In this document: positions 1 through 10,028 of the stretch, one piece after another
Layout of the letters: each line of letters opens with the position of its first letter
Numbering within the stretch: the stretch's first letter is position 1
Assembly: GCA_013378385.1 (NCBI GenBank)
Contig: JACAFS010000037.1
Span: forward strand, 1-10,028
Length of the DNA: 10,028 nucleotides
Reading direction: 5' to 3'
Source of the DNA: Nitrososphaerota archaeon
GTDB taxonomy: Archaea; Thermoproteota; Nitrososphaeria; Nitrososphaerales; UBA57
Program-made: the position numbers and the translations under genes
The notes under the pieces: model-generated
Told to the model about the DNA's origin: nothing
What the model saw: only the letters and a program-made list of their open reading frames with translations
Databases searched by the model: none

Positions 1-128
1 CTTTAGAAAAGGAAGATTTCAATCGTATTTTAAAATATCACATCAAGCCATTACTTGAGGAATATGACAAAATTTCCAGTTCTGATGGAAAACTTGTCAG
101 CATTTTAGAAGAATATCTTCTTTCATAA
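1..128 (+). CDS. 3' end of a CDS entering from the left edge (42 codons, frame from nt 3, TAA at 126-128); C-terminus resembles McrB/MoxR-type AAA+ proteins
   Basis: Open frame LEKEDFNRILKYHIKPLLEEYDKISSSDGKLVSILEEYLLS*. From memory, the I-x-P-L-L-x-E-Y motif near the C-terminus occurs in McrB-like (COG1401) AAA+/GTPase proteins. The fragment is too short for a firm call. Confidence 0.35.
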   Translation, partial: LEKEDFNRILKYHIKPLLEEYDKISSSDGKLVSILEEYLLS

Positions 129-147
129 AATTATCAAAAAATTGCAG

Positions 148-184
148 TTTTTCATGCTTATTGTTAATCAGCATGTAAATTTTT
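148..184 (+). terminator. Candidate terminator of the upstream gene: T5 run, hairpin, T5 run
   Basis: T5 at 148-152. A 6-bp inverted repeat catgct/agcatg (153-158 pairs with 170-175, 11-nt loop). T5 at 180-184. The element starts 20 nt after the TAA at 126-128. Archaeal termination typically uses oligo-T tracts. Confidence 0.35.
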
Positions 185-215
185 CAATGCAAATCCTACA
201 TTTCGTAGGTTCATG

Positions 216-251
216 TAGTCACGTACGACCATTTAGTCGCGTAAGACCATT
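216..251. repeat. Tandem direct repeat, 2 x 18 bp (tagtcacgtacgaccatt / tagtcgcgtaagaccatt), 16/18 identical
   Basis: Read directly: 216-233 and 234-251 are head-to-tail copies differing at 2 positions. Each copy contains GTC-N6-GAC. The repeat is locally GC-rich within an AT-rich 254-nt intergenic region upstream of livH. Confidence 0.8.
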
Positions 252-327
252 GTGTTTTCATATTTTTCTTCTTCACCATTGTCAACTTTTGACGGCGTAA
301 TATGATATGCCGATTTGCATAATTGAG

Positions 328-336
328 TTATATAAA
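328..336 (+). promoter_or_regulatory. Candidate TATA box for the liv operon
   Basis: ttatataaa at 328-336, about 50 nt upstream of the GTG at 383. This implies a short leader of roughly 20-25 nt if the TSS lies about 25-27 nt downstream of the box. Confidence 0.35.
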
Positions 337-382
337 CATTATCCATCAAAACTGTGAAAAGTGAGTTATGGATAATTAGTTT

Positions 383-1300
383 GTGGTCCTCGTTAATCTT
401 CCTCAGTTATTTATTGATAGCATTTTGACTGGAAGCGTCCTTGCTTTGGGAGCCATCGGACTGACTCTTGTATACCGTGTCATGAAGTTTCCTAACTTTG
501 TACATGCAGAGTTCATGACCTTCGGGGCTTATTCCGCATACGCGGCAAACCAATATCTCGGCCTTGGCCTGTTCGCTGGAAGCATCTCGTCTTTCATTGC
601 ATCTGGGATGCTGGCCGTTCTCTCCTATCGTTTTGTGTTCTCGAAACTGGAGAACGTAAGTTCGTCTGGGACGACCACCAAGCTCACATCGATGCTGATT
701 GCATCTATTGGCCTCGGTTTCATCTTTCGGCATTCCATCCAGGAAATTTGGGGTGCAAATGTTTTGTATTTCAACATCGAAGCTCCTGCAATATACGAAT
801 ACTTTACCGCAAGATTCACAAGCTTCGATCTTATAATCATACTGTCGTCCGTTCTTCTTGTTCTCTTGCTCCATGTGTTTCTGACTTACACCAATCTCGG
901 TAAAACCATTCGGGCAACTTCAGACAACCCTGGCCTTTCTCTGATCAGCGGAATAGACACCGACCGAGTGATTTACATCGTTTGGTTCCTCAGCGGAGGC
1001 ACTGCGGGATTCGCAGGTTTCCTGAGGGGTGTTGACACTCGTCTGTCTCCATGGCTTGGCTGGAATGTATTGCTGATTGCATTTGCCGTTGTCATACTTG
1101 GAGGAATAGGAAGCTTTTACGGGGCAATCATTGCAGCATACATTATCGGATTCGTTGAGAACATCGGAGTAGTTGCGTTGATCAATTTGGATCTGCCCAC
1201 AAGCTACCGACCTGCAATAGCTTTCTCCATATTGATCATCATGCTTATCTTCAGGCCCCAGGGCCTCTTCAGTACGTCAAGCACTCGGAAAGGTGGTTAG
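383..1300 (+). CDS. livH: Branched-chain/hydrophobic amino acid (HAAT family) ABC transporter permease, LivH type
   Basis: 305 aa polytopic membrane protein. N-terminus LPQLFIDSILTGSVLALGAIGLTLVY...FVHAEFMTFGAY matches the LivH/BPD_transp_2 pattern. GTG start at 383; the upstream ATG at 368 hits a stop after 3 codons. TAG at 1298-1300 abuts the next gene. Confidence 0.9.
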   Translation: MVLVNLPQLFIDSILTGSVLALGAIGLTLVYRVMKFPNFVHAEFMTFGAYSAYAANQYLGLGLFAGSISSFIASGMLAVLSYRFVFSKLENVSSSGTTTKLTSMLIASIGLGFIFRHSIQEIWGANVLYFNIEAPAIYEYFTARFTSFDLIIILSSVLLVLLLHVFLTYTNLGKTIRATSDNPGLSLISGIDTDRVIYIVWFLSGGTAGFAGFLRGVDTRLSPWLGWNVLLIAFAVVILGGIGSFYGAIIAAYIIGFVENIGVVALINLDLPTSYRPAIAFSILIIMLIFRPQGLFSTSSTRKGG

Positions 1301-2227
1301 TTGCTAAATTTCATACTCGACGCTCTGATCTATACAGGGGTATTTGGCATTCTTGCAATCAGCCTGAATATTGAAGCGGGATTCACTCGATTGATGAATT
1401 ACGGAAAGGTCGCGTTCTTCGGAGTTGGCGCATACACGTCTGCCTTGCTGGCATTGAGTGGATACAATTTCATATTCACCTTGGTTGCAGCTATTTTCAT
1501 GTCGGCCCTTGCAGGATTCCTTATCTCCTTGCCAACGCTCAGGCTTCGGGAGGATTACTTCGCAATAGTTACGGTATCTGCTGGAGAGATCCTGAGATTG
1601 TTCTTCATCAGCGAAGCCTGGCTTACGAATGGCACGCGAGGGCTTCCTGGCATACCTAGGCCATTGGCTGAATTCATTCCTACCAACAACTATCTTCTGT
1701 TCTACACCCCGGTGGTTCTCATATTCCTGTTTGCATGCTATCTTATCGCCACTCAAATCGTAAACTCTCCGTTCGGACGAGTTCTGAAATCTATACGAGA
1801 GGATGAAGTTGCGTCAAAGTCTCTTGGAAAAGACATCTTCAAATTCAAAACAAAATCGTTGATTATCGGATCATCCATGGCCGGTGTCGCAGGGCATCTA
1901 TTTTCATACCATCTTCGATTCATCTCTCCCGACATGTTCTTTCCAGTCCTTACATTCACTATCTGGACGATGATGATTATTGGAGGAATTGCAAATATGA
2001 AGGGCTCGATTCTTGGAGCACTGCTCGTGCAAACTTTTGAAAGAGGAATGTCAATTGCTAAAGATTATGTCTCTCTGCCGATCGACCCGCTAAACTTTAG
2101 GATCATCGTTATCGGCTTTATCCTGATATTGTTTATGATGTATCGGCCCGAAGGCATTATTCCCGAAGAAAAAACTAAATCTATCTATACGAGGTTGGAA
2201 GAAAATGGAACAGCTGAAACTAAATAA
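1301..2227 (+). CDS. livM: HAAT-family ABC transporter permease, LivM type
   Basis: 308 aa membrane protein with LNIEAGFTRLMNYGKVAFFGVGAYTSA, typical of LivM. A TTG start at 1301 directly follows the livH stop. The first in-frame ATG would remove the conserved N-terminal segment. Confidence 0.85.
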   Translation: MLNFILDALIYTGVFGILAISLNIEAGFTRLMNYGKVAFFGVGAYTSALLALSGYNFIFTLVAAIFMSALAGFLISLPTLRLREDYFAIVTVSAGEILRLFFISEAWLTNGTRGLPGIPRPLAEFIPTNNYLLFYTPVVLIFLFACYLIATQIVNSPFGRVLKSIREDEVASKSLGKDIFKFKTKSLIIGSSMAGVAGHLFSYHLRFISPDMFFPVLTFTIWTMMIIGGIANMKGSILGALLVQTFERGMSIAKDYVSLPIDPLNFRIIVIGFILILFMMYRPEGIIPEEKTKSIYTRLEENGTAETK

Positions 2228-2969
2228 TATCCATAAATCCTTTGGAGGAATAGTTGCACTGGACGGCGTTGATTTCTCTGTGAAAAAGAAATCAATTACG
2301 GGACTGGTTGGACCTAATGGCTCTGGAAAAACCACGCTGTTCAACAGTATCACCGGGTTCATCCCTGTAGACGAAGGTTCTATAAAGTTCAATGACATCG
2401 ATATAACCAATCTGTCTCCTGATAAAATCGCTAATCACGGAATAATCCGCTCATTTCAAATTCCTAGACCTTTCTCTAAGATGACAGTTCTGGAAAATGT
2501 ATTGTTGAGCGCGAGAAATCAACTTGGAGAGAATATTATTCCGCTGCTCTTCCGTAAAAAAGAAGTAATCAAACAAGAGACTGAGAACCATGAACGCGCA
2601 AAGGAAATATTGGAACTCCTCGATTTGTCGCATCTCACCAATGAATATTCTGCAGGCCTGTCTGGCGGACAGAAAAAACTTCTTGAACTTGCCCGAATTC
2701 TCATGGCCGATCCTGAAATAATCCTTCTTGATGAACCTATTGCAGGTGTGAATCCCACCTTGGCCAACAAGATATTTGAGAAGATTATCGATATGCGTGA
2801 CAAATACGATAAGACCTTCTTGATTGTAGAACACAACATAGACGTCGTTCGCGATTATTGCGAATACATTGGCGTGATGAATCGTGGAAAAATCATTGCC
2901 GACGGGGATCCTTCTAAAGTCTTTGCCGACGAAAAAGTCCTGAACATATACTTGGGGTTGGAAGATTAG
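2205..2969 (+). CDS. livG: HAAT-family ABC transporter ATP-binding protein, LivG type
   Basis: Walker A GPNGSGKTT, signature LSGGQKKLLELAR, Walker B ILLDEPIAGV, H-loop VEHN, and a LivG-like C-terminal extension. The ATG at 2205 overlaps livM by 23 nt and follows the SD-like gaggt at 2191-2195. Confidence 0.93.
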   Translation: MEQLKLNNIHKSFGGIVALDGVDFSVKKKSITGLVGPNGSGKTTLFNSITGFIPVDEGSIKFNDIDITNLSPDKIANHGIIRSFQIPRPFSKMTVLENVLLSARNQLGENIIPLLFRKKEVIKQETENHERAKEILELLDLSHLTNEYSAGLSGGQKKLLELARILMADPEIILLDEPIAGVNPTLANKIFEKIIDMRDKYDKTFLIVEHNIDVVRDYCEYIGVMNRGKIIADGDPSKVFADEKVLNIYLGLED

Positions 2970-2971
2970 AC

Positions 2972-3676
2972 ATGTTCAAAGTATCGGGTCTGCATTCTGG
3001 ATATGACGGCACAATCATCATTGAAGATATTGATCTCAATGTACAAACTGACGAGATTGTTACTATTATCGGCCCCAATGGTTCAGGTAAAAGTACCTTG
3101 TTGAAAAGTATATTTGGAATTGTCAAACCACAGCAGGGTCAAATAGAATTCCTAAACGAACAAATTACTGGAATGAAACCATTTCGAGTTTTTGAAAAAG
3201 GCATCTCCTATGTACCGCAAGTAGAGAATATCTTTTCTAATCTTACAATATCCGAGAATCTTGATATTGGTTTCTATACTTCAAAAATCAAAGACACTAA
3301 AGATGAATTGGATAAAATATATTCTATCTTTCCTCAACTCAAAAACAAGAACTCAATAAAGTCGGGTAACTTGAGTGGAGGCGAAAGGCAGATGCTGGCA
3401 ATCGCAAGGGCATTGATCGGAGACCCTAAACTATTATTGCTGGATGAGCCCACTGCCAGCTTGGCTCCAAATCTAGTTAATGAAATCATGCAAAAATTAA
3501 TTCAGATTAAGGAGTCTGGAACCTCTATTTTATTAGTTGAACAGAATGCAAAGAAGTCCCTGGCAATCTCTGATCGCTGTTATGTACTGGCAATGGGAAA
3601 GAATTTCTTCGATGGCAAAGCATCTGAAGTTATTAATAATAAAGAATTAGGCCGTATGTTTTTAGGAAGTAAATAA
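2972..3676 (+). CDS. livF: HAAT-family ABC transporter ATP-binding protein, LivF type
   Basis: Walker A GPNGSGKST, signature LSGGERQMLAIAR, Walker B LLLDEPTASL, LVEQN. 234 aa, typical LivF length. The ATG lies 2 nt after the livG stop. Confidence 0.93.
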   Translation: MFKVSGLHSGYDGTIIIEDIDLNVQTDEIVTIIGPNGSGKSTLLKSIFGIVKPQQGQIEFLNEQITGMKPFRVFEKGISYVPQVENIFSNLTISENLDIGFYTSKIKDTKDELDKIYSIFPQLKNKNSIKSGNLSGGERQMLAIARALIGDPKLLLLDEPTASLAPNLVNEIMQKLIQIKESGTSILLVEQNAKKSLAISDRCYVLAMGKNFFDGKASEVINNKELGRMFLGSK

Positions 3677-3683
3677 AAAAAAA
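3675..3683 (-). terminator. Oligo-T (T9 on the minus strand) terminator candidate for the binding-protein gene
   Basis: A9 on the + strand (3675-3683) reads as T9 in the minus-sense transcript. It lies 14 nt downstream of the SBP stop (3697-3699) and overlaps the last two bases of the livF stop codon. Confidence 0.45.
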
Positions 3684-3696
3684 GAGTTTGACGATA

Positions 3697-4878
3697 CTAA
3701 GAAAGACTGACGCCCGAAGGGTCCCAGTTTCCGATATCGACAAACGCTCCGCTTACGATTCTCCAGATGCTGTAGGTTCCGCCTACGTCTCCGTTTTCAT
3801 CGAATGTTTTGTCGCCTGATGCTCCAACATAGCCATTTGCTACGCTGATTAATGCATCTCTGATAGCTTCTTTAGTTGCATCTGCGCCTGCCTCATCAAT
3901 TGCCATTAGGGCTAATTTGGCTGCGTCATATGCCTCTGCCGAATAGAGTCCTTCTTCCAATCCATTAGCTGCTAATAGATCTAAGAAAGCTGCCTTTCCT
4001 GGTGATTCAGGTGAAGCTGGACGTGTTCCTATCATTCCTTCTGTTGCTTCAGCAATTCCTGGTGCTGCGAATATAGCATCATCTGCTATTCCATCGCCGC
4101 CAAGCCATTGTGCTGTAATTCCAAGTTCTGCTGCTTCTCTGAATATGATTTGTCCGTCATCTGCATACGAGACATCGAGTATGATATCTGGATTCGTAGC
4201 TTGTATTTGTGATAATTCAGTGCGGTATGTTGCCATTTCTAGCTCATATGCTATTGCAATTGTTATTGTGCCTCCGTTTGCTATGAATGATTCTTGAAAT
4301 ACATCAGACAATCCTTGTCCATATTGATTATTTACAAAGATTACTGCTGCAGTTCTGTGTCCTTGTGACCAAGCTAGATCTGCCATTGCAACGCCTTGTA
4401 GTGCGTCACTTGGAGCAGTTCTGAAAATGAAGTCACCTGCATTTGATACATCAGGTGATGTAGAAGCTGGAGAAATCATGATGGTTTTAGCATCTTCAAC
4501 AATTGGTGCTGCTGCTAGTGTTGATGAACTTGCATATACACCGACTATTGCATGAACTCCGTCAACTTCAACCAATTTCTTTGCCGCTGCTGCTGATGCA
4601 GCTGGATCTGTTGCTGAGTCTTCTTCTATCAGTTGAACAGTACAGCCGTCAATACCACCTTGGTCGTTTGCTTCTATCACAGCAGCTTGAACTCCTGCTT
4701 GGAAGCCTCCTGCATATGCTGCAAGTGGACCACTTGTTGGTAGTATGTGTCCGAGTTTTACTACACAATCTCCGTCATTTGACATCTGAGTGAAGTAAAA
4801 TCCTCCAACTAATACTGCTACGACAATAATTCCTATGATAATATAGTTTTGAGGTATACTACCTGAGTTACTTGCCAT
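3697..4878 (-). CDS. Type I periplasmic-binding-protein fold substrate-binding protein (Leu/Ile/Val-binding family, Peripla_BP_6-like), membrane anchored
   Basis: 393 aa. N-terminal hydrophobic anchor IIIGIIVVAVLVGGFYF. Family-like segments include KLGHILPTSGPLAAYAG, AKKLVEVDGVHAIVG, ISPASTSP, FRTAPSD and YDAAKLALMAI. It lies convergent to the livHMGF operon. The substrate cannot be read from the sequence. Confidence 0.85.
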   Translation of the reverse strand: MASNSGSIPQNYIIIGIIVVAVLVGGFYFTQMSNDGDCVVKLGHILPTSGPLAAYAGGFQAGVQAAVIEANDQGGIDGCTVQLIEEDSATDPAASAAAAKKLVEVDGVHAIVGVYASSSTLAAAPIVEDAKTIMISPASTSPDVSNAGDFIFRTAPSDALQGVAMADLAWSQGHRTAAVIFVNNQYGQGLSDVFQESFIANGGTITIAIAYELEMATYRTELSQIQATNPDIILDVSYADDGQIIFREAAELGITAQWLGGDGIADDAIFAAPGIAEATEGMIGTRPASPESPGKAAFLDLLAANGLEEGLYSAEAYDAAKLALMAIDEAGADATKEAIRDALISVANGYVGASGDKTFDENGDVGGTYSIWRIVSGAFVDIGNWDPSGVSLS

Positions 4879-4900
4879 AATCGTGTATACCGTTTGTTGG

Positions 4901-4910
4901 TTATAAATTT
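4901..4910 (-). promoter_or_regulatory. Candidate TATA box for the binding-protein gene (leaderless or near-leaderless mRNA)
   Basis: The minus strand reads aaatttataa, centred about 27 nt upstream of the ATG (4878-4876). This is the classic archaeal TATA-to-TSS spacing. Confidence 0.4.
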
Positions 4911-5156
4911 CGTCAACTAATATGATTGTTTCAAGTATTCATTGATGTATTGGACAGATGTATTCATAGAATTAATTTCAATGAACGTATGACTCAAATT
5001 TTCATTTTTATTAGTAAACAAGAATTGAATAATCCATATATTCTGACTATAATTATTATGTGCTTAAACCATGGACGATTGTTATTGTGCTTTCGACATT
5101 CATTTATTAGGCACAGAAAATTTTTTGTATTGTGTGCCGGGGCAAGAAGCCGGGGT

Positions 5157-5169
5157 TTGTTTACTCGAA
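5157..5169 (+). other. tRNA intron 1, 13 nt, position 8/9
   Basis: BHB-type fold. The 4-bp helix 5151-5154 (cggg) pairs with 5164-5167 (ctcg, one G-U). The 3-nt bulges are 5155-5157 and 5168-5170, with junctions after the second bulge nucleotide. The flanking helix is 5148-5150 with 5171-5173. Splicing yields U8-A9. Confidence 0.7.
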
Positions 5170-5193
5170 AGCTCAGCCTGGTTAGAGCGCCAG

Positions 5194-5214
5194 CCTCCAT
5201 AGTACAAGGGCGTT
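5194..5214 (+). other. tRNA intron 2, 21 nt, position 30/31 (inside the anticodon stem)
   Basis: hBHBh' fold. The central helix 5188-5191 (cgcc) pairs perfectly with 5209-5212 (ggcg). The bulges are 5192-5194 and 5213-5215. The outer helix is gag/ctc (5185-5187 with 5216-5218) and the inner helix is ct/ag (5195-5196 with 5207-5208). Splicing restores the A31-U39 pair. Confidence 0.75.
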
Positions 5215-5243
5215 ACTCATAATCTGGAGGTCGTGGGTTCGAA

Positions 5244-5256
5244 ATTTATACGGAAG
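5244..5256 (+). other. tRNA intron 3, 13 nt, position 59/60 (T-loop)
   Basis: The 4-bp helix 5238-5241 (ttcg) pairs with 5251-5254 (cgga, one U-G). The bulges are 5242-5244 and 5255-5257. The T-stem (5233-5237 with 5258-5262) serves as the flanking helix. It has the same 1+6+4+2 nt layout as intron 1. Confidence 0.7.
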
Positions 5257-5275
5257 ACCCACTCCCGGCATTCAA

Positions 5276-5806
5276 TTACATTAATAATTCTATTCCGAAG
5301 AATCCAGTATATGCATACATTAAATTTAATGCAATCTTGCCAAGTATTGCAGCTATTAGAGCTCTTAATTTTGGATAACCCATGACTCCCAGCGGTATCC
5401 AAAGAATATCGTCTGGTGTCAATGGCGTCGCTGCAAAAATAAAAATTAGTCCTACTCCGTACTTCCTTATTTTTTCTTCCCAATCTATTGGTTCTCTATT
5501 TCGTTTGTAAAATTTTGGAAATTTAAATTTTCCTAGGGAAATTTTTTTTCTAGCCAAAAAATCATTTTCAAATAATTTTCTTCCTCCGACTCCGATATAA
5601 TAATGAAGAAACTGTCCAACTCCTGCACCAAGTCCTGCCATTATTCCAACTAATAGGGGATTCAATTGCGATCCAATTATTGGAATTGTTATGAACGACG
5701 GAAATACCGAAAAGAATAATGAACTGGAACCCAGAAATCCTGCTAATAAAGCTCCGAGATATCCTAATCCAGATAAATTTTCTATAAAGATAGCAAATAA
5801 ATCCAT
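5276..5806 (-). CDS. DedA/YqaA-like (VTT/SNARE-associated domain) integral membrane protein
   Basis: 176 aa with several hydrophobic helices. The G-rich helix GIMAGLGAGVGQFLHYYIGVGGRK and the later YGVGLIFIFAATPLTPDDIL segment resemble my recollection of COG1238/DedA-type proteins. No enzymatic motifs seen. Confidence 0.55.
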   Translation of the reverse strand: MDLFAIFIENLSGLGYLGALLAGFLGSSSLFFSVFPSFITIPIIGSQLNPLLVGIMAGLGAGVGQFLHYYIGVGGRKLFENDFLARKKISLGKFKFPKFYKRNREPIDWEEKIRKYGVGLIFIFAATPLTPDDILWIPLGVMGYPKLRALIAAILGKIALNLMYAYTGFFGIELLM

Positions 5807-5861
5807 GGTTCTGCACTATTGATTTACCCTGCATTGGATATATCTGTTATATGATTTATTT

Positions 5862-7106
5862 CTAGATTTTAGTGATACTTACTTTATCAGCAGTATTATT
5901 CTCAACTTCATCCACAACAAATAACAACCCGCTTGTTTCTATTTTGTCTCCCTTTTTTGGAATATCCTTTAAGAAATCATGAAGTATTCCATTCACATTT
6001 GAAAAGTCATATTTTCCACTTTTCTTGAAATCCATCTTGAAATACTTCTCTATTTCCTCGATCTTCGTTTCGCCAGTGGCTATTATTGTATTGTGATCCG
6101 CGCGTTTTATCGTAGGAAACACATTCTCACTTTCATCTATTATTTCACCGACAATCTCTTCAACCAAGTCTTCTAGAGTTAACAATCCCTCAACACCTTC
6201 GAATTCATCCAATACTATTGCCATGTGAACCCTCTTTGATTGCAGTTCTCTGAGTAAATCTCCTACTATTTCTCTTTGAGATACAAATATTGGTTTTCTT
6301 GATATTCGTAACACTCCTTCTTCTCCCCTGCCTTTCTTTTGCTCAATGAGCATCTGTTTCAAATGGACAATTCCTACTACATTATCCTTGGATTCGTTTA
6401 TGAGTGGCGCTCTAGTATATCCGCTATCTATCATTTCTGTTATGGATTGATTGACGTCCATTCTTGAATCTAGAACAAACATCTTTTTCCTCGGAATCAT
6501 TACCTCTCTAGCAGTAGTATCTCCAGATTTCAATACACCTCTGATGTATTCTTTTTCATGTTTTTCAATAATATTTTCTTGTTCCCCTACATCCAATATT
6601 GTTTTTATCTCGTCTTCTGTTAATGTGGGGTTTACATCTTTACTTGAATCCCCTAGTAGGAAATCTGACAATTTCATTAATGGTATTGTGAATGGCGATA
6701 ATATCTTCACGATAATCTCTATCGGTCTCGAAATAACTAATGAAAATCTTTCATTGTTAACGGTGGAATATGATTTTGGAATTATCTCTCCAAAAATCAA
6801 TATTGTCAAAGTCATAAACCCTGTAGCTATTCCCAGTCCATTTGATCCAAATTCTTCAATCGCTATGCTTGTCGCTAATGATGCAGCACTGATATTTACA
6901 AGATTATTCCAAATTAATATGGTCGTAATCAATTTTTTTGGCTCTTGTTTTAATCTAAATAACGATCCAGAACCTCTCTTTTTTTGTTCATAAAGTGTTT
7001 TTACTTTAATCTTGTTTAATGAAACTAACGCAGTTTCACTTCCTGATGAAATTGCTGATAAAATAACTAAAACAACTAATACTGTTAAACTAACAAAGTC
7101 TACCAA
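5862..7106 (-). CDS. CNNM/CorC-HlyC family transporter (DUF21 membrane domain + CBS pair + CorC_HlyC domain), putative Mg2+/Co2+ efflux
   Basis: SAISSGSETAL and FGEIIPK mark the DUF21 domain. The CBS pair includes TAREVMIPRKKM and HMAIVLDEFEGVEGLLTLEDLVEEIVGEIIDE. The C-terminal transporter-associated domain ends ADKVSITKI. TTG start at 7106; no in-frame ATG before the conserved region. Confidence 0.9.
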   Translation of the reverse strand: MVDFVSLTVLVVLVILSAISSGSETALVSLNKIKVKTLYEQKKRGSGSLFRLKQEPKKLITTILIWNNLVNISAASLATSIAIEEFGSNGLGIATGFMTLTILIFGEIIPKSYSTVNNERFSLVISRPIEIIVKILSPFTIPLMKLSDFLLGDSSKDVNPTLTEDEIKTILDVGEQENIIEKHEKEYIRGVLKSGDTTAREVMIPRKKMFVLDSRMDVNQSITEMIDSGYTRAPLINESKDNVVGIVHLKQMLIEQKKGRGEEGVLRISRKPIFVSQREIVGDLLRELQSKRVHMAIVLDEFEGVEGLLTLEDLVEEIVGEIIDESENVFPTIKRADHNTIIATGETKIEEIEKYFKMDFKKSGKYDFSNVNGILHDFLKDIPKKGDKIETSGLLFVVDEVENNTADKVSITKI

Positions 7107-7160
7107 ATTTTTATTACAATCTTTATCTTTTTTGCTTGAATATATCTTTTTGTTAAAACA

Positions 7161-7167
7161 TTAATAA
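7161..7167 (+). promoter_or_regulatory. Candidate TATA box for the RidA-cofE pair
   Basis: ttaataa is centred about 25-27 nt upstream of the ATG at 7189, consistent with a leaderless transcript. It sits in the 82-nt divergent region shared with the CNNM gene. Confidence 0.3.
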
Positions 7168-7188
7168 CACAACTGCTTAAAATCACTC

Positions 7189-7641
7189 ATGATTGAGGAA
7201 AAGTTAGTTTCACTTGGGCTTACACTCCCAGGAGTTCCAAAACCCGCAGGCTCATATATTCCGTCACTTAGAATAAATGACCTTGTTTTCATTTCTGGAC
7301 AGGTTCCTTTTATTGATGGCAATCTTCTTACAGGAAAATTGGGTTCTGACATATCCGTGGAAGAAGGTTATGATCGTGCAAAAGTCTGTGCCTTGAACGC
7401 TTTGAGTGTGATTAAAGCAGAAATTGGATCTTTGGATAATGTTAAGCGGATTGTTAAAGTTTCTGGATATGTTAACTGTGTCGATACTTTCGTAGACCAT
7501 CCCAAAGTAATCAATGGAGCATCTGATTTGTTTGGTAAACTATTCGGAGAAGCCGGACAACATACAAGAATTGCAATTGGCAGTAACTCTCTCCCAATGG
7601 ATTCTTCCGTCGAATTGGATGTTATATTTCAAGTTGAATAG
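7189..7641 (+). CDS. RidA/YjgF/L-PSP family protein (reactive intermediate/imine deaminase family)
   Basis: 150 aa. LGLTLPGVPKPAGSYIPS...LVFISGQVP at the N-terminus, VKVSGYVN, and C-terminal HTRIAIGSNSLPMDSSVELDVIF. This includes the Arg equivalent to the catalytic Arg of RidA. Confidence 0.88.
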   Translation: MIEEKLVSLGLTLPGVPKPAGSYIPSLRINDLVFISGQVPFIDGNLLTGKLGSDISVEEGYDRAKVCALNALSVIKAEIGSLDNVKRIVKVSGYVNCVDTFVDHPKVINGASDLFGKLFGEAGQHTRIAIGSNSLPMDSSVELDVIFQVE

Positions 7642-7657
7642 ATGAAAAGTTAGAACC

Positions 7658-8434
7658 TTGAATCAAATTAAATTATTGCCTATTAAAGTTCCAAGACAGG
7701 ATACAAAATTCAGCCTGCTTGATTTGATTTCCAAATCACTTGAAAGCAATTCCACCGAGTTAAAAGACGGAGATATACTTTGCATTTCTAGTAAATTTGT
7801 TGCATTGTCTGAAGGCCGATACGTTAAACTCTCTGATGTAGACGTAAGTTCTTACGCAACTGAAATAGCTGAAAAATATAATATCGACCCTCGTTTATCT
7901 GAGTTGATAGTTCAAGAATCTGATAAAATCTTCTATGGCTTTGATGGATTTGTCCTAACTTTCAAAGACGGCATTCTGGTCCCTAATGCGGGAATTGATA
8001 CGTCTAATATAATGCCCGGCTATGCAATTCTATATCCAGAAGATTCCTTTCAATCCGCAAAAATTCTAAAGTCTGAAATTAAAAAATTATTCAACACTGA
8101 AAATGCAATTATTATTACTGATAGTAGGTTGATGCCTACTCGTATTGGCACTACCGGCGTGGCTATTGCCTCTTCTGGAGTAAAACCCATTGAAGACGAA
8201 CGTGGAAAAACTGATCTTTTTGGCAATTCTATTCGTGTTACTCAAAAAGCTATTGCCGACGATTTGAGCTCGGCAGCTCAATTGCTCATGGGTGAATGTG
8301 ACGAATCTGTTCCTATAGTGATTATACGCGATAGCAACCTGCTAGTCTCTGATAATGATCAATCTAGTCAGACATTCTCTGTTGGGTTTGACGAATGTAT
8401 ATTTATCAAGGGACTTTCTAATTCTAAAATCTAA
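7658..8434 (+). CDS. cofE: Coenzyme F420-0:L-glutamate ligase (CofE)
   Basis: CofE hallmarks: ISSKFVALSEGR, NAGIDTSN, IITDSRLMPTRIGTTGVAIASSG, ERGKTDLFGN...VTQKAIADDLSSAAQLLMGE, PIVIIRD. TTG start at 7658 (alternative TTG at 7676); no usable ATG. The gene begins 16 nt after the RidA stop, so it is probably co-transcribed. Confidence 0.85.
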   Translation: MNQIKLLPIKVPRQDTKFSLLDLISKSLESNSTELKDGDILCISSKFVALSEGRYVKLSDVDVSSYATEIAEKYNIDPRLSELIVQESDKIFYGFDGFVLTFKDGILVPNAGIDTSNIMPGYAILYPEDSFQSAKILKSEIKKLFNTENAIIITDSRLMPTRIGTTGVAIASSGVKPIEDERGKTDLFGNSIRVTQKAIADDLSSAAQLLMGECDESVPIVIIRDSNLLVSDNDQSSQTFSVGFDECIFIKGLSNSKI

Positions 8435-8435
8435 T

Positions 8436-8597
8436 TTATTTCTTAATTATTTCTGTCTTAAATTCTCTTTTTGAAAATGCACTATTACAACTTCTACATT
8501 TTCCACTATTTGATTTGATAACATCGTTAACATATCTTAATTCCATTCCTTGATATATCATATGTCCACAATTATCACAAATTACTTCAAAAGTCAA
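8436..8597 (-). CDS. Small zinc-ribbon protein, 53 aa (CxxC-x23-CxxC), not in the supplied ORF track
   Basis: Hand translation of the minus strand gives (M/L)TFEVICDNCGHMIYQGMELRYVNDVIKSNSGKCRSCNSAFSKREFKTEIIKK*. A TTG at 8597-8595 immediately follows an in-frame TAA. TAA stop at 8438-8436. The ORF fills the otherwise empty 187-nt gap and begins 24 nt downstream of the HAD gene on the same strand. Confidence 0.5.
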   Translation of the reverse strand: MTFEVICDNCGHMIYQGMELRYVNDVIKSNSGKCRSCNSAFSKREFKTEIIKK

Positions 8598-8621
8598 TTA
8601 TAGTATACTGGTGTAAATTTA

Positions 8622-9242
8622 CTAATAAAACTTTTTTATCATGTCCGGAATCATGTCAAATGACGTTGCTTGATATTTTGCATCTACTTCATTGAATTGT
8701 TCTGCCGTTGAACCTTTGTCCACTAATGCAATAAATTCTGTACCCGAATTCATCGCTGTTTTATAATCTCTTACTGTATCTCCAATGTAAACACATTCTT
8801 CTGGTTTAACTGATAATTTCTTACATGCCAAGTGCATCGGTTCTGGATCTGGCTTCTGTTTCACGGTTTGTTCTGGAGTTATCAACACTGCGAAATAATC
8901 ATTCAATTCTCCTAATACTTCAATTGCATTTGCCTTTCTTTTTGACGTCACAATTCCCATTGGCAAGTCTATCTTCTCTAAAGTCTCTTTAACATGAGGC
9001 AATGTGGGTAAATTCTCATGAGTCTTTACTACCACTTCATTATAAATTGGCCTTGCATCCTTATTGTCTCCAAATAGTAAGGGCAAATTCAAATGTGAAG
9101 GCTGACCTAATAGGCCTCTTAGAACTTCTATATCAGGAGGTTCTACTCCCAGCTTAATTGCCACTTGTGTATATGTCTGAAATATTGCATTGTTGGAATC
9201 TATTATCGTCCCATCTAGATCAAATAATACAGCTTTTAACAT
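8622..9242 (-). CDS. HAD-superfamily (subfamily IA) phosphatase, phosphoglycolate phosphatase/PpaX-like
   Basis: Motif I LFDLDGTIIDS, motif II GIVTSK, motif III KPDPEP, motif IV GDTVRD. I start it at the ATG at 9242-9240 (MLKAVLFDLDGT), not the TTG at 9344 in the ORF track. The 34 extra residues are unconserved-looking and would overlap the uS10 start. Confidence 0.88.
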   Translation of the reverse strand: MLKAVLFDLDGTIIDSNNAIFQTYTQVAIKLGVEPPDIEVLRGLLGQPSHLNLPLLFGDNKDARPIYNEVVVKTHENLPTLPHVKETLEKIDLPMGIVTSKRKANAIEVLGELNDYFAVLITPEQTVKQKPDPEPMHLACKKLSVKPEECVYIGDTVRDYKTAMNSGTEFIALVDKGSTAEQFNEVDAKYQATSFDMIPDMIKKFY

Positions 9243-9328
9243 TGAGCTATAGATTTTTTCATTTGTATTTGTTCTTTTCGCACAAATGTAAAATTCAAAT
9301 ACCCGAACATACAATATAATAAAGAAAT

Positions 9329-9643
9329 ATGGCTCAAACCGCAAGGATCAAATTAACAAGCAGTAACCTTCCTAACCTACAGGTCGTTTGCAAGGAGATC
9401 AAAGACATTACCGACCGTACTGGCATCAAAGCACGAGGTCCACAGCCACTTCCTACAAAAAAACTCAAAATTACCACTCGAAAGGCCCCGTCTGGAAACG
9501 GCACTAGCACTTTCGATAGATGGCAGCTACGTATCCACAGGCGCCTGATTGACCTGGATGCCGACGACCGAACCATGAGACAGCTCATGCGACTCAAAGT
9601 TCCTGAAGACGTATTCATCGAAGTCAATCTTTCAAGTAAATAG
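9329..9643 (+). CDS. rps10: 30S ribosomal protein uS10 (archaeal S10)
   Basis: 104 aa. ARIKLTSSN...GPQPLPTKKL...RLIDLDADDRTMRQLMRLKVPEDVFIEV matches the archaeal S10 pattern. ATG start. GC-richer than its neighbours. Confidence 0.95.
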   Translation: MAQTARIKLTSSNLPNLQVVCKEIKDITDRTGIKARGPQPLPTKKLKITTRKAPSGNGTSTFDRWQLRIHRRLIDLDADDRTMRQLMRLKVPEDVFIEVNLSSK

Positions 9644-9656
9644 TTGACGCCGTCAA
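9644..9656. terminator. Palindromic hairpin in the 15-nt gap between convergent rps10 and the HTH gene
   Basis: ttgac-gcc-gtcaa forms a 5-bp stem with a 3-nt loop and is followed by attt. It lies between the stop codons at 9641-9643 (+) and 9659-9661 (-). Confidence 0.4.
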
Positions 9657-9658
9657 AT

Positions 9659-10012
9659 TTAATTTGAGACTATCTTCAAGATATTCTCGGAATTCTCCAT
9701 GATTATTCCTTTACGTCTTTGTTTTCCAGCCTCCTGTTTATCATCAACAAGACGCTCTGCAAGACTTTTTATTATTTTCATTACTTGTTTGTTTTTCAGG
9801 AACTCATCAGAGAATATCGCATCATTTCTTTTTTCATTTGTGTATTTTGTTATTAGAGCAGGCGTTACTCCTAAAATCTTTGAAACGTCCGTTTTTGTAA
9901 CTTTATGCTTATCGAATAATTCCTTTGCCAATAAACATCGCACCGATGGTAAAATTTTGTATTGAACTGCTTTTACGTTCTGTAAAGGTTGTATGGGGTC
10001 TGCTTCACACAT
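9659..10012 (-). CDS. Small helix-turn-helix transcriptional regulator (archaeal COG2522-like)
   Basis: 117 aa. ILPSVRCLLAKELFDKHKVTKTDVSKILGVTPALITKYTNEKRN resembles the N-terminal HTH of small archaeal predicted regulators that start MCE... and carry an ..SQYL..KRG-type segment. This match is from memory and is not verified. Confidence 0.55.
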   Translation of the reverse strand: MCEADPIQPLQNVKAVQYKILPSVRCLLAKELFDKHKVTKTDVSKILGVTPALITKYTNEKRNDAIFSDEFLKNKQVMKIIKSLAERLVDDKQEAGKQRRKGIIMENSENILKIVSN

Positions 10013-10028
10013 TACGCATAACTGTGAA

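Follow-up and report, generated by a model that had tools for sequence, protein, structure and literature searches.

Gene structure of the tRNA(CAU) locus

The window analysed here is a stretch of 10,028 nucleotides (nt) of contig JACAFS010000037.1 (positions 1 to 10,028, forward strand) from assembly GCA_013378385.1 of a Nitrososphaerota archaeon (GTDB lineage Archaea; Thermoproteota; Nitrososphaeria; Nitrososphaerales; UBA57), and the element under study is a tRNA(CAU) gene on the plus strand, which is interrupted by three short introns and preceded in its leader by a replica of its own 5' acceptor strand. Four exons make up the gene. Exon 1 (5149 to 5156, 8 nt; tRNA positions 1 to 8, GCCGGGGU) was placed by the ARAGORN fold together with the bulge-helix-bulge (BHB) register, and it is the only copy of the acceptor strand with U8 next to it. 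Exon 2 (5170 to 5193, 24 nt; positions 9 to 30) holds the D arm together with the 5' portion of the anticodon stem and is identical in more than 100 metagenome loci. Exon 3 (5215 to 5243, 29 nt; positions 31 to 59), assigned from the ARAGORN fold, carries the anticodon CAU (5218 to 5220), the variable loop, the 5' strand of the T stem and the T loop, and exon 4 (5257 to 5270, 14 nt; positions 60 to 73) the 3' strand of the T stem, the 3' acceptor strand UCCCGGC and the discriminator A73, with CCA not encoded. Once joined, the exons give GCCGGGGTAGCTCAGCCTGGTTAGAGCGCCAGACTCATAATCTGGAGGTCGTGGGTTCGAAACCCACTCCCGGCA, which ARAGORN recognizes as a canonical 75-nt tRNA(CAU) with stems of 7 (acceptor), 4 (D), 5 (anticodon) and 5 (T) base pairs (bp) and the loop CUCAUAA; U8, A14, G18G19 and the T loop TTCGAAA are present as well. 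A previous reading of the letters and open reading frames by a model (the sequence-only reading) had proposed a three-intron tRNA(CAU) gene at this place, and its coordinates proved exact; the joined exons fold as a textbook cloverleaf. As the exons are colinear and all lie within 122 nt, a permuted or split gene is ruled out, the upstream piece being a duplicate of the 5' strand.

In its unspliced form the gene escapes the usual tools, as had been foreseen for default gene finders: ARAGORN, its intron search included, reports no tRNA in the window, and there is no Rfam match at the gathering score or at E ≤ 10. A call obtained at the locus by lowering the ARAGORN threshold was mis-registered and was discarded. 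The multi-intron homologues in related loci likewise have no match to the Rfam tRNA model at the gathering score. The intron-less homologues L206 and L181 (labels of this kind denote the related loci) run contiguously across the joins and score 69 to 74 bits with this model.

The features of an initiator tRNA-Met, namely A1:U72 and an uninterrupted run of three G:C pairs at the base of the anticodon stem, are absent from the window tRNA, which has G1:C72 and the anticodon stem CCAGA/UCUGG; a true initiator (AGCGCGG..., GGG/CCC) is found for comparison in loci L171, L191 and L226. Between elongator Met and Ile2, the GCCGGGG acceptor, which we take to resemble that of archaeal elongator tRNA-Met, gives a lean and nothing firmer. 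In the same way, CAU tRNAs with a GGGCCCG acceptor (L133, L216) are Ile-like in look, again a lean, and the literature searched yielded no usable archaeal rule for separating Met from Ile2.

Splice motifs of the three introns

The sequence-only reading had applied a single rule to every intron, with four paired nt followed by a 3-nt bulge and the cut after the second bulge nt on both strands. This rule, which we used as the test, agrees with the published BHB geometry, where nt 34-35 lie within a 4-bp helix and the splice sites within the flanking 3-nt bulges (PMC4090602). It gives 4 of 4 pairs in all three introns, as CGGG/CTCG at position 8/9, CGCC/GGCG at 30/31 and TTCG/CGGA at 59/60, and registers shifted by 1 to 4 nt leave at most 3 pairs for every intron. 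When the introns were shuffled, all three helices occurred together in ~1e-5 of trials, which bears out the statement that three helices at fixed offsets are unlikely by chance. The outer helices of introns 1, 2 and 3 are AGC/GCT, GAG/CTC and the T stem itself. The mature sequence fixes the splice positions, with the exception of intron 3, which can equally be written at 60/61 and is assigned to 59/60 because the BHB register selects it; the positions originally proposed, including that within the anticodon stem at 30/31, are thereby settled.

Intron 1 (5157 to 5169, 13 nt, position 8/9) has the relaxed hBH-loop form, with its central helix at 5151-5154/5164-5167 (CGGG/CUCG), its outer helix at 5148-5150/5171-5173, the 3' bulge at 5168-5170 and the 5' splice site inside a 9-nt loop. 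Intron 2 (5194 to 5214, 21 nt, position 30/31) is near-canonical hBHBh', its central helix (5188-5191/5209-5212, CGCC/GGCG) having both flanking helices, the outer at 5185-5187/5216-5218 and the inner at 5195-5196/5207-5208. Intron 3 (5244 to 5256, 13 nt, position 59/60) is again of the relaxed hBH-loop form, with the central helix 5238-5241/5251-5254 (UUCG/CGGA) and the T stem itself (5233-5237/5258-5262) as outer helix. In introns 1 and 3 the 5' bulge is fused with a 6-nt loop, so that the shared miniature layout noticed earlier in the two 13-nt introns corresponds to this relaxed form, which has been described for heterotetrameric splicing endonucleases (PMC4090602). The endonucleases of Thaumarchaeota are of the alpha2-beta2 type and tolerant of relaxed motifs (PMC4090602). 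The window itself contains neither the endonuclease genes nor that of an RtcB ligase. The expectation that the gene requires a splicing endonuclease of broad specificity is upheld.

The central helices are maintained in the homologues. At 8/9 the intron strand reads CTCG, CCCG or CCTG and is always paired with CGGG, and in a tRNA-Thr with an intron at the same position (see below) the helix is CTCG/CGAG. At 30/31, where most loci of the family have an intron, compensatory change is seen (TGCC with GGCA or GGTA versus CGCC with GGCG or GGTG) and 4 of 4 pairs are kept in most of the distinct intron sequences tabulated. The 59/60 helix combines TTCG with CGAA, CGGA or CGAG and is paired 4 of 4 without exception.

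Conservation, distribution and genomic context

We tabulated 143 unique sequences of the family, and compared 16 distinct three-intron sequences of Nitrososphaeria from marine, groundwater and other sources. Within these 16, exons 1 and 2 are constant (exon 2 by construction, as the parser demanded its exact sequence), and exons 3 and 4 differ only in a compensated T-stem pair and at position 66. The T-stem change, GTGGG/CCCAC to GCGGG/CCCGC, occurs in L178. At the same time, the three introns have 8, 12 and 10 variants, chiefly in their loops. The claim that the locus holds a real gene and no decaying one is thus sustained, given that the exons are identical in homologues while the introns vary and the BHB helices covary. 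It had also been asked whether an intact duplicate exists elsewhere, and each GTDB genome with this gene type has a single exon-3 match among the matches listed.

The gene is flanked by a branched-chain amino-acid ABC transporter operon and by genes for a VTT-domain membrane protein, a CNNM/CorC transporter, RidA, F420 gamma-glutamyl ligase and a HAD hydrolase. The VTT neighbour has no record of exactly the same sequence, and its close homologues, which where named belong to a Nitrososphaerales or Thermoproteota archaeon, were used for the analysis of synteny. Contigs with VTT homologues of 94 to 70% identity show the same gene order and the same three-intron tRNA in the same intergenic spacer.

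The VTT gene is convergent with the tRNA gene, and its stop codon (5276 to 5278, minus strand) lies just 5 nt from A73 (5270), so the tRNA trailer and the 3' end of the VTT mRNA must overlap; there is no obvious oligo-T terminator between the tRNA 3' end and this stop codon. Two open reading frames overlap the tRNA gene, one of 98 amino acids (4926 to 5222, plus strand) and one of 88 amino acids (5217 to 5483, minus strand). Both are almost certainly spurious and could be mis-annotated as hypothetical proteins, hiding the tRNA.

An exact-match scan with exon 3 returned at least 119 GTDB species, all of them Nitrososphaeria among the matches listed. In most Nitrosopumilaceae, Nitrosotalea and Cenarchaeum, the gene of this tRNA has a single intron, of 11 to 20 nt or 40 to 41 nt, at 30/31. 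Since the single intron of most genes sits there, the 30/31 intron is ancestral and family-wide in Nitrososphaeria, a point on which the sequence-only reading was silent. Additional introns, at 8/9, 45/46, 59/60 or at another place in the T loop, are found in other lineages and make up several three-intron combinations. The combination of the window gene (8/9, 30/31 and 59/60) is present in marine metagenomes, in one marine metagenome-assembled genome (MAG) of GTDB (Nitrososphaerales archaeon ALOHA_A2.5_79), in an uncultured Nitrosopumilales MAG (L037), in the groundwater Thaumarchaeota MAGs L040 and L088 and in related metagenome contigs. Metagenome loci L132, L135, L151, L159, L160, L154 and L201 carry other three-intron combinations of the same tRNA, namely 8/9 with 30/31 and 45/46, 8/9 with 45/46 and 59/60, or 8/9 with a 30/31 intron of ~90 nt and a T-loop intron. 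This tRNA(CAU) is an intron hot spot across Nitrososphaeria.

Several further observations were made in the related loci. A second gene type, with a conserved 30/31 intron of 40 to 41 nt (consensus TTnAATTGGTAAACTCTAnCGGTTCTTCCAAAAAAGGCAAT), is found in L016, L018 to L020, L023 and ~30 other Nitrosopumilus, Nitrosarchaeum and Nitrosopelagicus loci; judging from its length and conservation, this intron could have a function of its own. In the hot-spring archaeon SpSt-1190 (L075, ~200 to 300) a member of the same tRNA(CAU) family lacks the 30/31 and 59/60 introns and has GGCGGGG-CTACCTCCCAA-GGCAGGG-T as its 5' region. Of the two copies there, the upstream one is perfect against the 3' strand and the downstream one is mismatched at A4.C69; from a CTTG/CAAG helix, an 18-nt intron is predicted at 3/4. 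Apart from the tRNA family, a 12-nt unit (GGAGTTGGTTCT/A) is repeated in a long tandem array on the minus strand of L124 (~4218 to 4400), which is probably a repeat within the coding sequence of a Nitrosopumilus protein, and L141 contains an archaeal RNase P RNA (277 to 622; Rfam RF00373, 109 bits) on the same contig as an uninterrupted CAU tRNA.

A replica of the 5' acceptor strand in the leader

Upstream of exon 1 lies a second copy of its acceptor strand, GCCGGGG, at 5136 to 5142 (plus strand; the leader replica, or copy 1), which is complementary to the 3' acceptor strand at 5263 to 5269 and was overlooked by the sequence-only reading. It begins 13 nt upstream of exon 1, is predicted to belong to the same transcript and is separated from exon 1 by the spacer CAAGAA (5143 to 5148), a leader segment of variable length (1 to 16 nt across lineages) and unconserved sequence. 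The replica is kept in 16 of the 16 three-intron homologues, where the spacer has 10 variants of 2 to 16 nt. Considering the whole family, it accompanies the 8/9 intron in 30 of 30 unique sequences versus 4 of the 113 without this intron, counts that are descriptive, the sequences being phylogenetically related. No prior description of a leader replica tied to 8/9 introns was met in the literature searched, the coverage of which was incomplete, so that this absence is not proof of novelty.

The replica tracks the acceptor stem: GCCGGGG, GCCGGGA and GCCGAGG each appear in both copies and each with the matching 3' strand. Where the replica departs from exon 1, its substitutions still pair with the 3' strand (A1-U72 in L201, U2.G71 in L248), and variation is free only at position 7, where the helix ends. 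For the copy in exon 1, pairing with the 3' strand is perfect in every case, and no other copy precedes U8; for these two reasons exon 1, as originally delimited, is right and the replica auxiliary. In RNAfold predictions, the replica is paired with the 3' strand both in the free minimum free energy (MFE) structure and with the three BHB motifs enforced, with a helix of -13.2 kcal/mol. Taken together, these comparisons argue that the replica, as an auxiliary RNA element, is under selection to pair with positions 66 to 72.

The same design is found in an unrelated tRNA, tRNA-Thr(GGU), with the strand GCCTCGG. In L144 (508 to 608, plus strand), from a close marine relative of the window organism, the repeat is located at 508 to 514, the spacer at 515 to 518, exon 1 at 519 to 526 and a 13-nt 8/9 intron with the helix CTCG/CGAG at 527 to 539; the Rfam match in this gene covers model positions 8 to 63 only. 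A tRNA-Thr(GGU) of the same layout is present on the minus strand of L136 (~3765 to 3950 in reverse-complement coordinates). In these tRNA-Thr genes the spacer has 4 to 6 nt and the 8/9 intron 13 or 19 nt, with a short anticodon-loop intron in addition. A search of 135 kb of related loci by way of truncated Rfam hits for further tRNAs with an 8/9 intron returned none beyond tRNA-Thr.

The promoter is in line with a transcript that includes the replica. A TATA-like box (TTTATTAG) at 5103 to 5110 (plus strand) is conserved in the syntenic homologues. In 36 genes with the duplication, the TATA-like hexamer starts at -29 to -33 from the leader copy, and in 135 single-copy genes at -31 to -33 from G1. 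The box is thus phased on the replica as it is on G1 elsewhere, and therefore the transcript would start right before the replica. From the standard archaeal spacing of TATA box to start (~30 nt), transcription is predicted to begin at about 5132 to 5135. This phasing suggests that the intron arose by insertion of the spacer, an exon copy and the intron behind the original 5' strand.

Other ways of relating the replica to the gene were tried and rejected. A single large intron reaching from copy 1 to 5169 would delete U8 or turn it into C, A or G. Removal of the leader by the splicing endonuclease finds no helix at the required register before 5149. As for pairing between leader and trailer, the trailers are unconserved and not complementary.

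Proposed role of the replica and alternative explanations

Based on the above, we consider, with a probability of about three in four, that a marine archaeon of the ammonia-oxidiser type (Nitrososphaeria, Thaumarchaeota) has at this locus a functional tRNA(CAU) gene of the elongator type, for tRNA-Met or tRNA-Ile2, with three BHB introns and a leader replica that would tether exon 1 during splicing. Transcription would begin 1 to 4 nt before 5136, and a splicing endonuclease of the broad-specificity (alpha-beta)2 type of the phylum would excise the introns at 8/9, 30/31 and 59/60, the exons being rejoined by an RtcB-type ligase. The BHB at 8/9 would take C3 to G6 of the 8-nt exon 1 as a strand of its central helix, and with these nucleotides engaged, exon 1 could not pair with the 3' acceptor strand during cleavage; after both cuts it would be held, by itself, by ~3 bp. 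Pairing of the replica (5136 to 5142) with the 3' acceptor strand would keep exon 1 covalently tethered to the body of the tRNA until ligation. Exon 1 would then displace the replica, aided by tertiary contacts that need U8 beside the stem, and RNase P would cut off the leader at 5148|5149, followed by the addition of CCA.

Such a tether would explain why the replica goes with 8/9 introns in two tRNA families and covaries with the 3' strand, and why position 7 and the spacer are free to vary. The introns at 30/31 and 59/60 would have no replica because other stems hold the respective exons. Going one step further, the replica might be a dedicated cis-acting splint, an undescribed class of pre-tRNA processing element and the very feature that permits introns at 8/9 at all, a proposal that we make tentatively and regard as somewhat doubtful in this strong form. 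If true, it would explain why, in two or more tRNA families of Nitrososphaeria, 8/9 introns are always accompanied by the repeat.

The following points weigh against the tethering role. First, the 30 intron-bearing sequences probably derive from one or few origins, and independent support comes mainly from the two tRNA families. Second, the unconstrained MFE structure of the precursor in RNAfold does not contain the 8/9 BHB. Third, nearest-neighbour folding predicts that the 3' strand is still captured by the replica and not by exon 1 once splicing is complete, which means that the hand-over would need the tertiary structure of the tRNA or RNase P as its driver. Finally, the replica is kept without an 8/9 intron in two lineages (L147, L149 and L233; L231 and L234). 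These cases may reflect recent intron loss or an intron-independent function of the replica, and a tether can account for them only as recent loss.

The last of these observations is also what one would expect if the repeat were functionless, that is, a scar of the duplication or insertion that brought the 8/9 intron, or of the att duplication of an integrative element, and simply lost with the leader. Mobile-element integration has been proposed as a route to tRNA disruption (PMC3293823), and relative to the promoter the repeat occupies the ancestral position of G1, as would result from inserting the spacer, exon 1 and the intron behind it. However, this 7-nt G+C-rich repeat has stayed intact in A+T-rich intergenic DNA next to a spacer with 10 variants and near intron loops that drift, it follows the changes of the acceptor stem while its own changes leave it able to pair with the 3' strand, and a second tRNA family has it too. 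We therefore regard a neutral origin and persistence of the repeat as unlikely.

A second possibility is that 5136 to 5142 is the true 5' acceptor strand of a gene with four introns, the additional one being a 13-nt intron (5143 to 5155) at 7/8 that leaves U8 (5156) as an exon of one nt. In the window, position 7/8 does conform to the strict BHB rule, with a CCGG/CCGG hairpin (5137-5140/5150-5153) and an identical 13-nt layout. Promoter phasing on the first copy matches exactly that on G1 of single-copy genes, and of the two copies it is the first whose helix with the 3' strand is more stable. The two adjacent introns would be excised one after the other, and tRNAscan-SE 2.0 notes that closely spaced introns require sequential removal (PMC8450103). 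Yet the CCGG/CCGG helix is what the duplication of a palindrome gives in any case and is not independent evidence, and it is impossible at all eight equivalent registers in GCCGAGG (the L147 type) and GCCTCGG (tRNA-Thr in L144 and L136). Moreover, no outer helix is formed, spacers of 1 to 2 nt (the L132 type and L040) are too short for a bulge and a loop, and the first copies of four lineages deviate at position 7, where they would give a 7:66 mismatch, but the second copy always pairs. A fourth intron would be a record and would come with a one-nucleotide exon; as a general explanation it fails in the L147 type and in tRNA-Thr and predicts these 7:66 mismatches, and we consider it quite improbable.

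Finally, that the locus is a decaying pseudogene or a chance tRNA-like fragment, with an intact copy elsewhere doing the work, is hardly credible: the standard finders are silent at it, but the exons have remained constant while the neighbouring protein diverged to 70% identity and introns and flanks vary, the T stem and BHB helices show compensatory changes, the promoter is conserved, the intron-less homologues are contiguous, and one exon-3 match per carrying GTDB genome is found among the matches listed.

A functional gene with a tethering replica would have consequences beyond the window. For annotation, an essential CAU tRNA of marine and terrestrial Nitrososphaeria is missed completely by general-purpose tools (ARAGORN, the Rfam tRNA model), and the genomes would then seem to be without an elongator Met or Ile2 tRNA. 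The constant combination of 8/9 intron and leader copy suggests a physical constraint, in that very short terminal exons would have to be held during protein-catalysed splicing, and it implies a simple design rule as to which positions of archaeal tRNAs can retain introns. The insertion suggested by the promoter phasing is also relevant to models of intron gain by local duplication.

Comparison with known systems

BHB introns, their non-canonical positions (30/31 and 59/60 included), relaxed motifs and genes with as many as three introns are established for archaeal tRNAs (PMC4090602, PMC4033280, PMC8450103). That multi-intron tRNAs with non-canonical introns were already known, as the sequence-only reading had stated, holds for Thermoproteales, with up to three introns, and for Thaumarchaeota, with two-intron genes (Table S7 of the tRNAscan-SE 2.0 census of 2021, PMC8450103). 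In this census all 16 of the three-intron genes belong to Thermoproteales, and the 11 thaumarchaeal genomes have 39 genes with two introns and none with three among 498. A three-intron tRNA gene is therefore new for Thaumarchaeota, having hitherto been counted only in Thermoproteales, although it is of a known kind, the archaeal multi-intron tRNAs.

The Thermoproteales genes, for example tRNA-Pro(UGG) of Pyrobaculum islandicum with introns at 25/26, 37/38 and 56/57, share with the window gene up to three short BHB or relaxed introns at non-canonical positions, 30/31 and 59/60 among them, a heterotetrameric endonuclease of broad specificity, and the fact that default gene finders miss them (PMC4090602, PMC4033280). 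Unlike these, the window gene belongs to mesophilic marine Nitrososphaeria, has no 37/38 intron, and combines an 8/9 intron with a leader replica, for which no description in Thermoproteales was found in the literature searched. The thaumarchaeal tRNAs detected by tRNAscan-SE 2.0 with a clade-specific BHB covariance model come from the same phylum and have the same type of intron, and this program anticipates introns near the 5' end as well as closely spaced ones (PMC8450103); there the maximum is two introns, whereas the window gene and its relatives have three.

The algal elongator tRNA-Met with three introns is similar in being of the elongator Met type with three short ectopic introns, but it is eukaryotic, and no leader replica is reported for it (PMC4090602). 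With the permuted tRNA genes of Thermofilum pendens, the locus has in common that an odd distance between promoter and tRNA betrays extra tRNA-derived sequence upstream (PMC3218864). In those genes the upstream piece is the true 3' half, joined via a circular intermediate, whereas in the window it is a redundant copy of the 5' strand in a gene of normal order. Similar in principle to the proposed tether are the split tRNAs of Nanoarchaeum equitans and Caldivirga, where sequence absent from the mature tRNA pairs to hold the pieces for the endonuclease and ligase and is then discarded (PMC4090602, PMC4033280); their complementary leader and trailer join two transcripts and form the BHB itself. 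In the window gene, by contrast, there is one transcript, and the replica copies an exon strand and pairs, outside the BHB, with the mature 3' acceptor strand.

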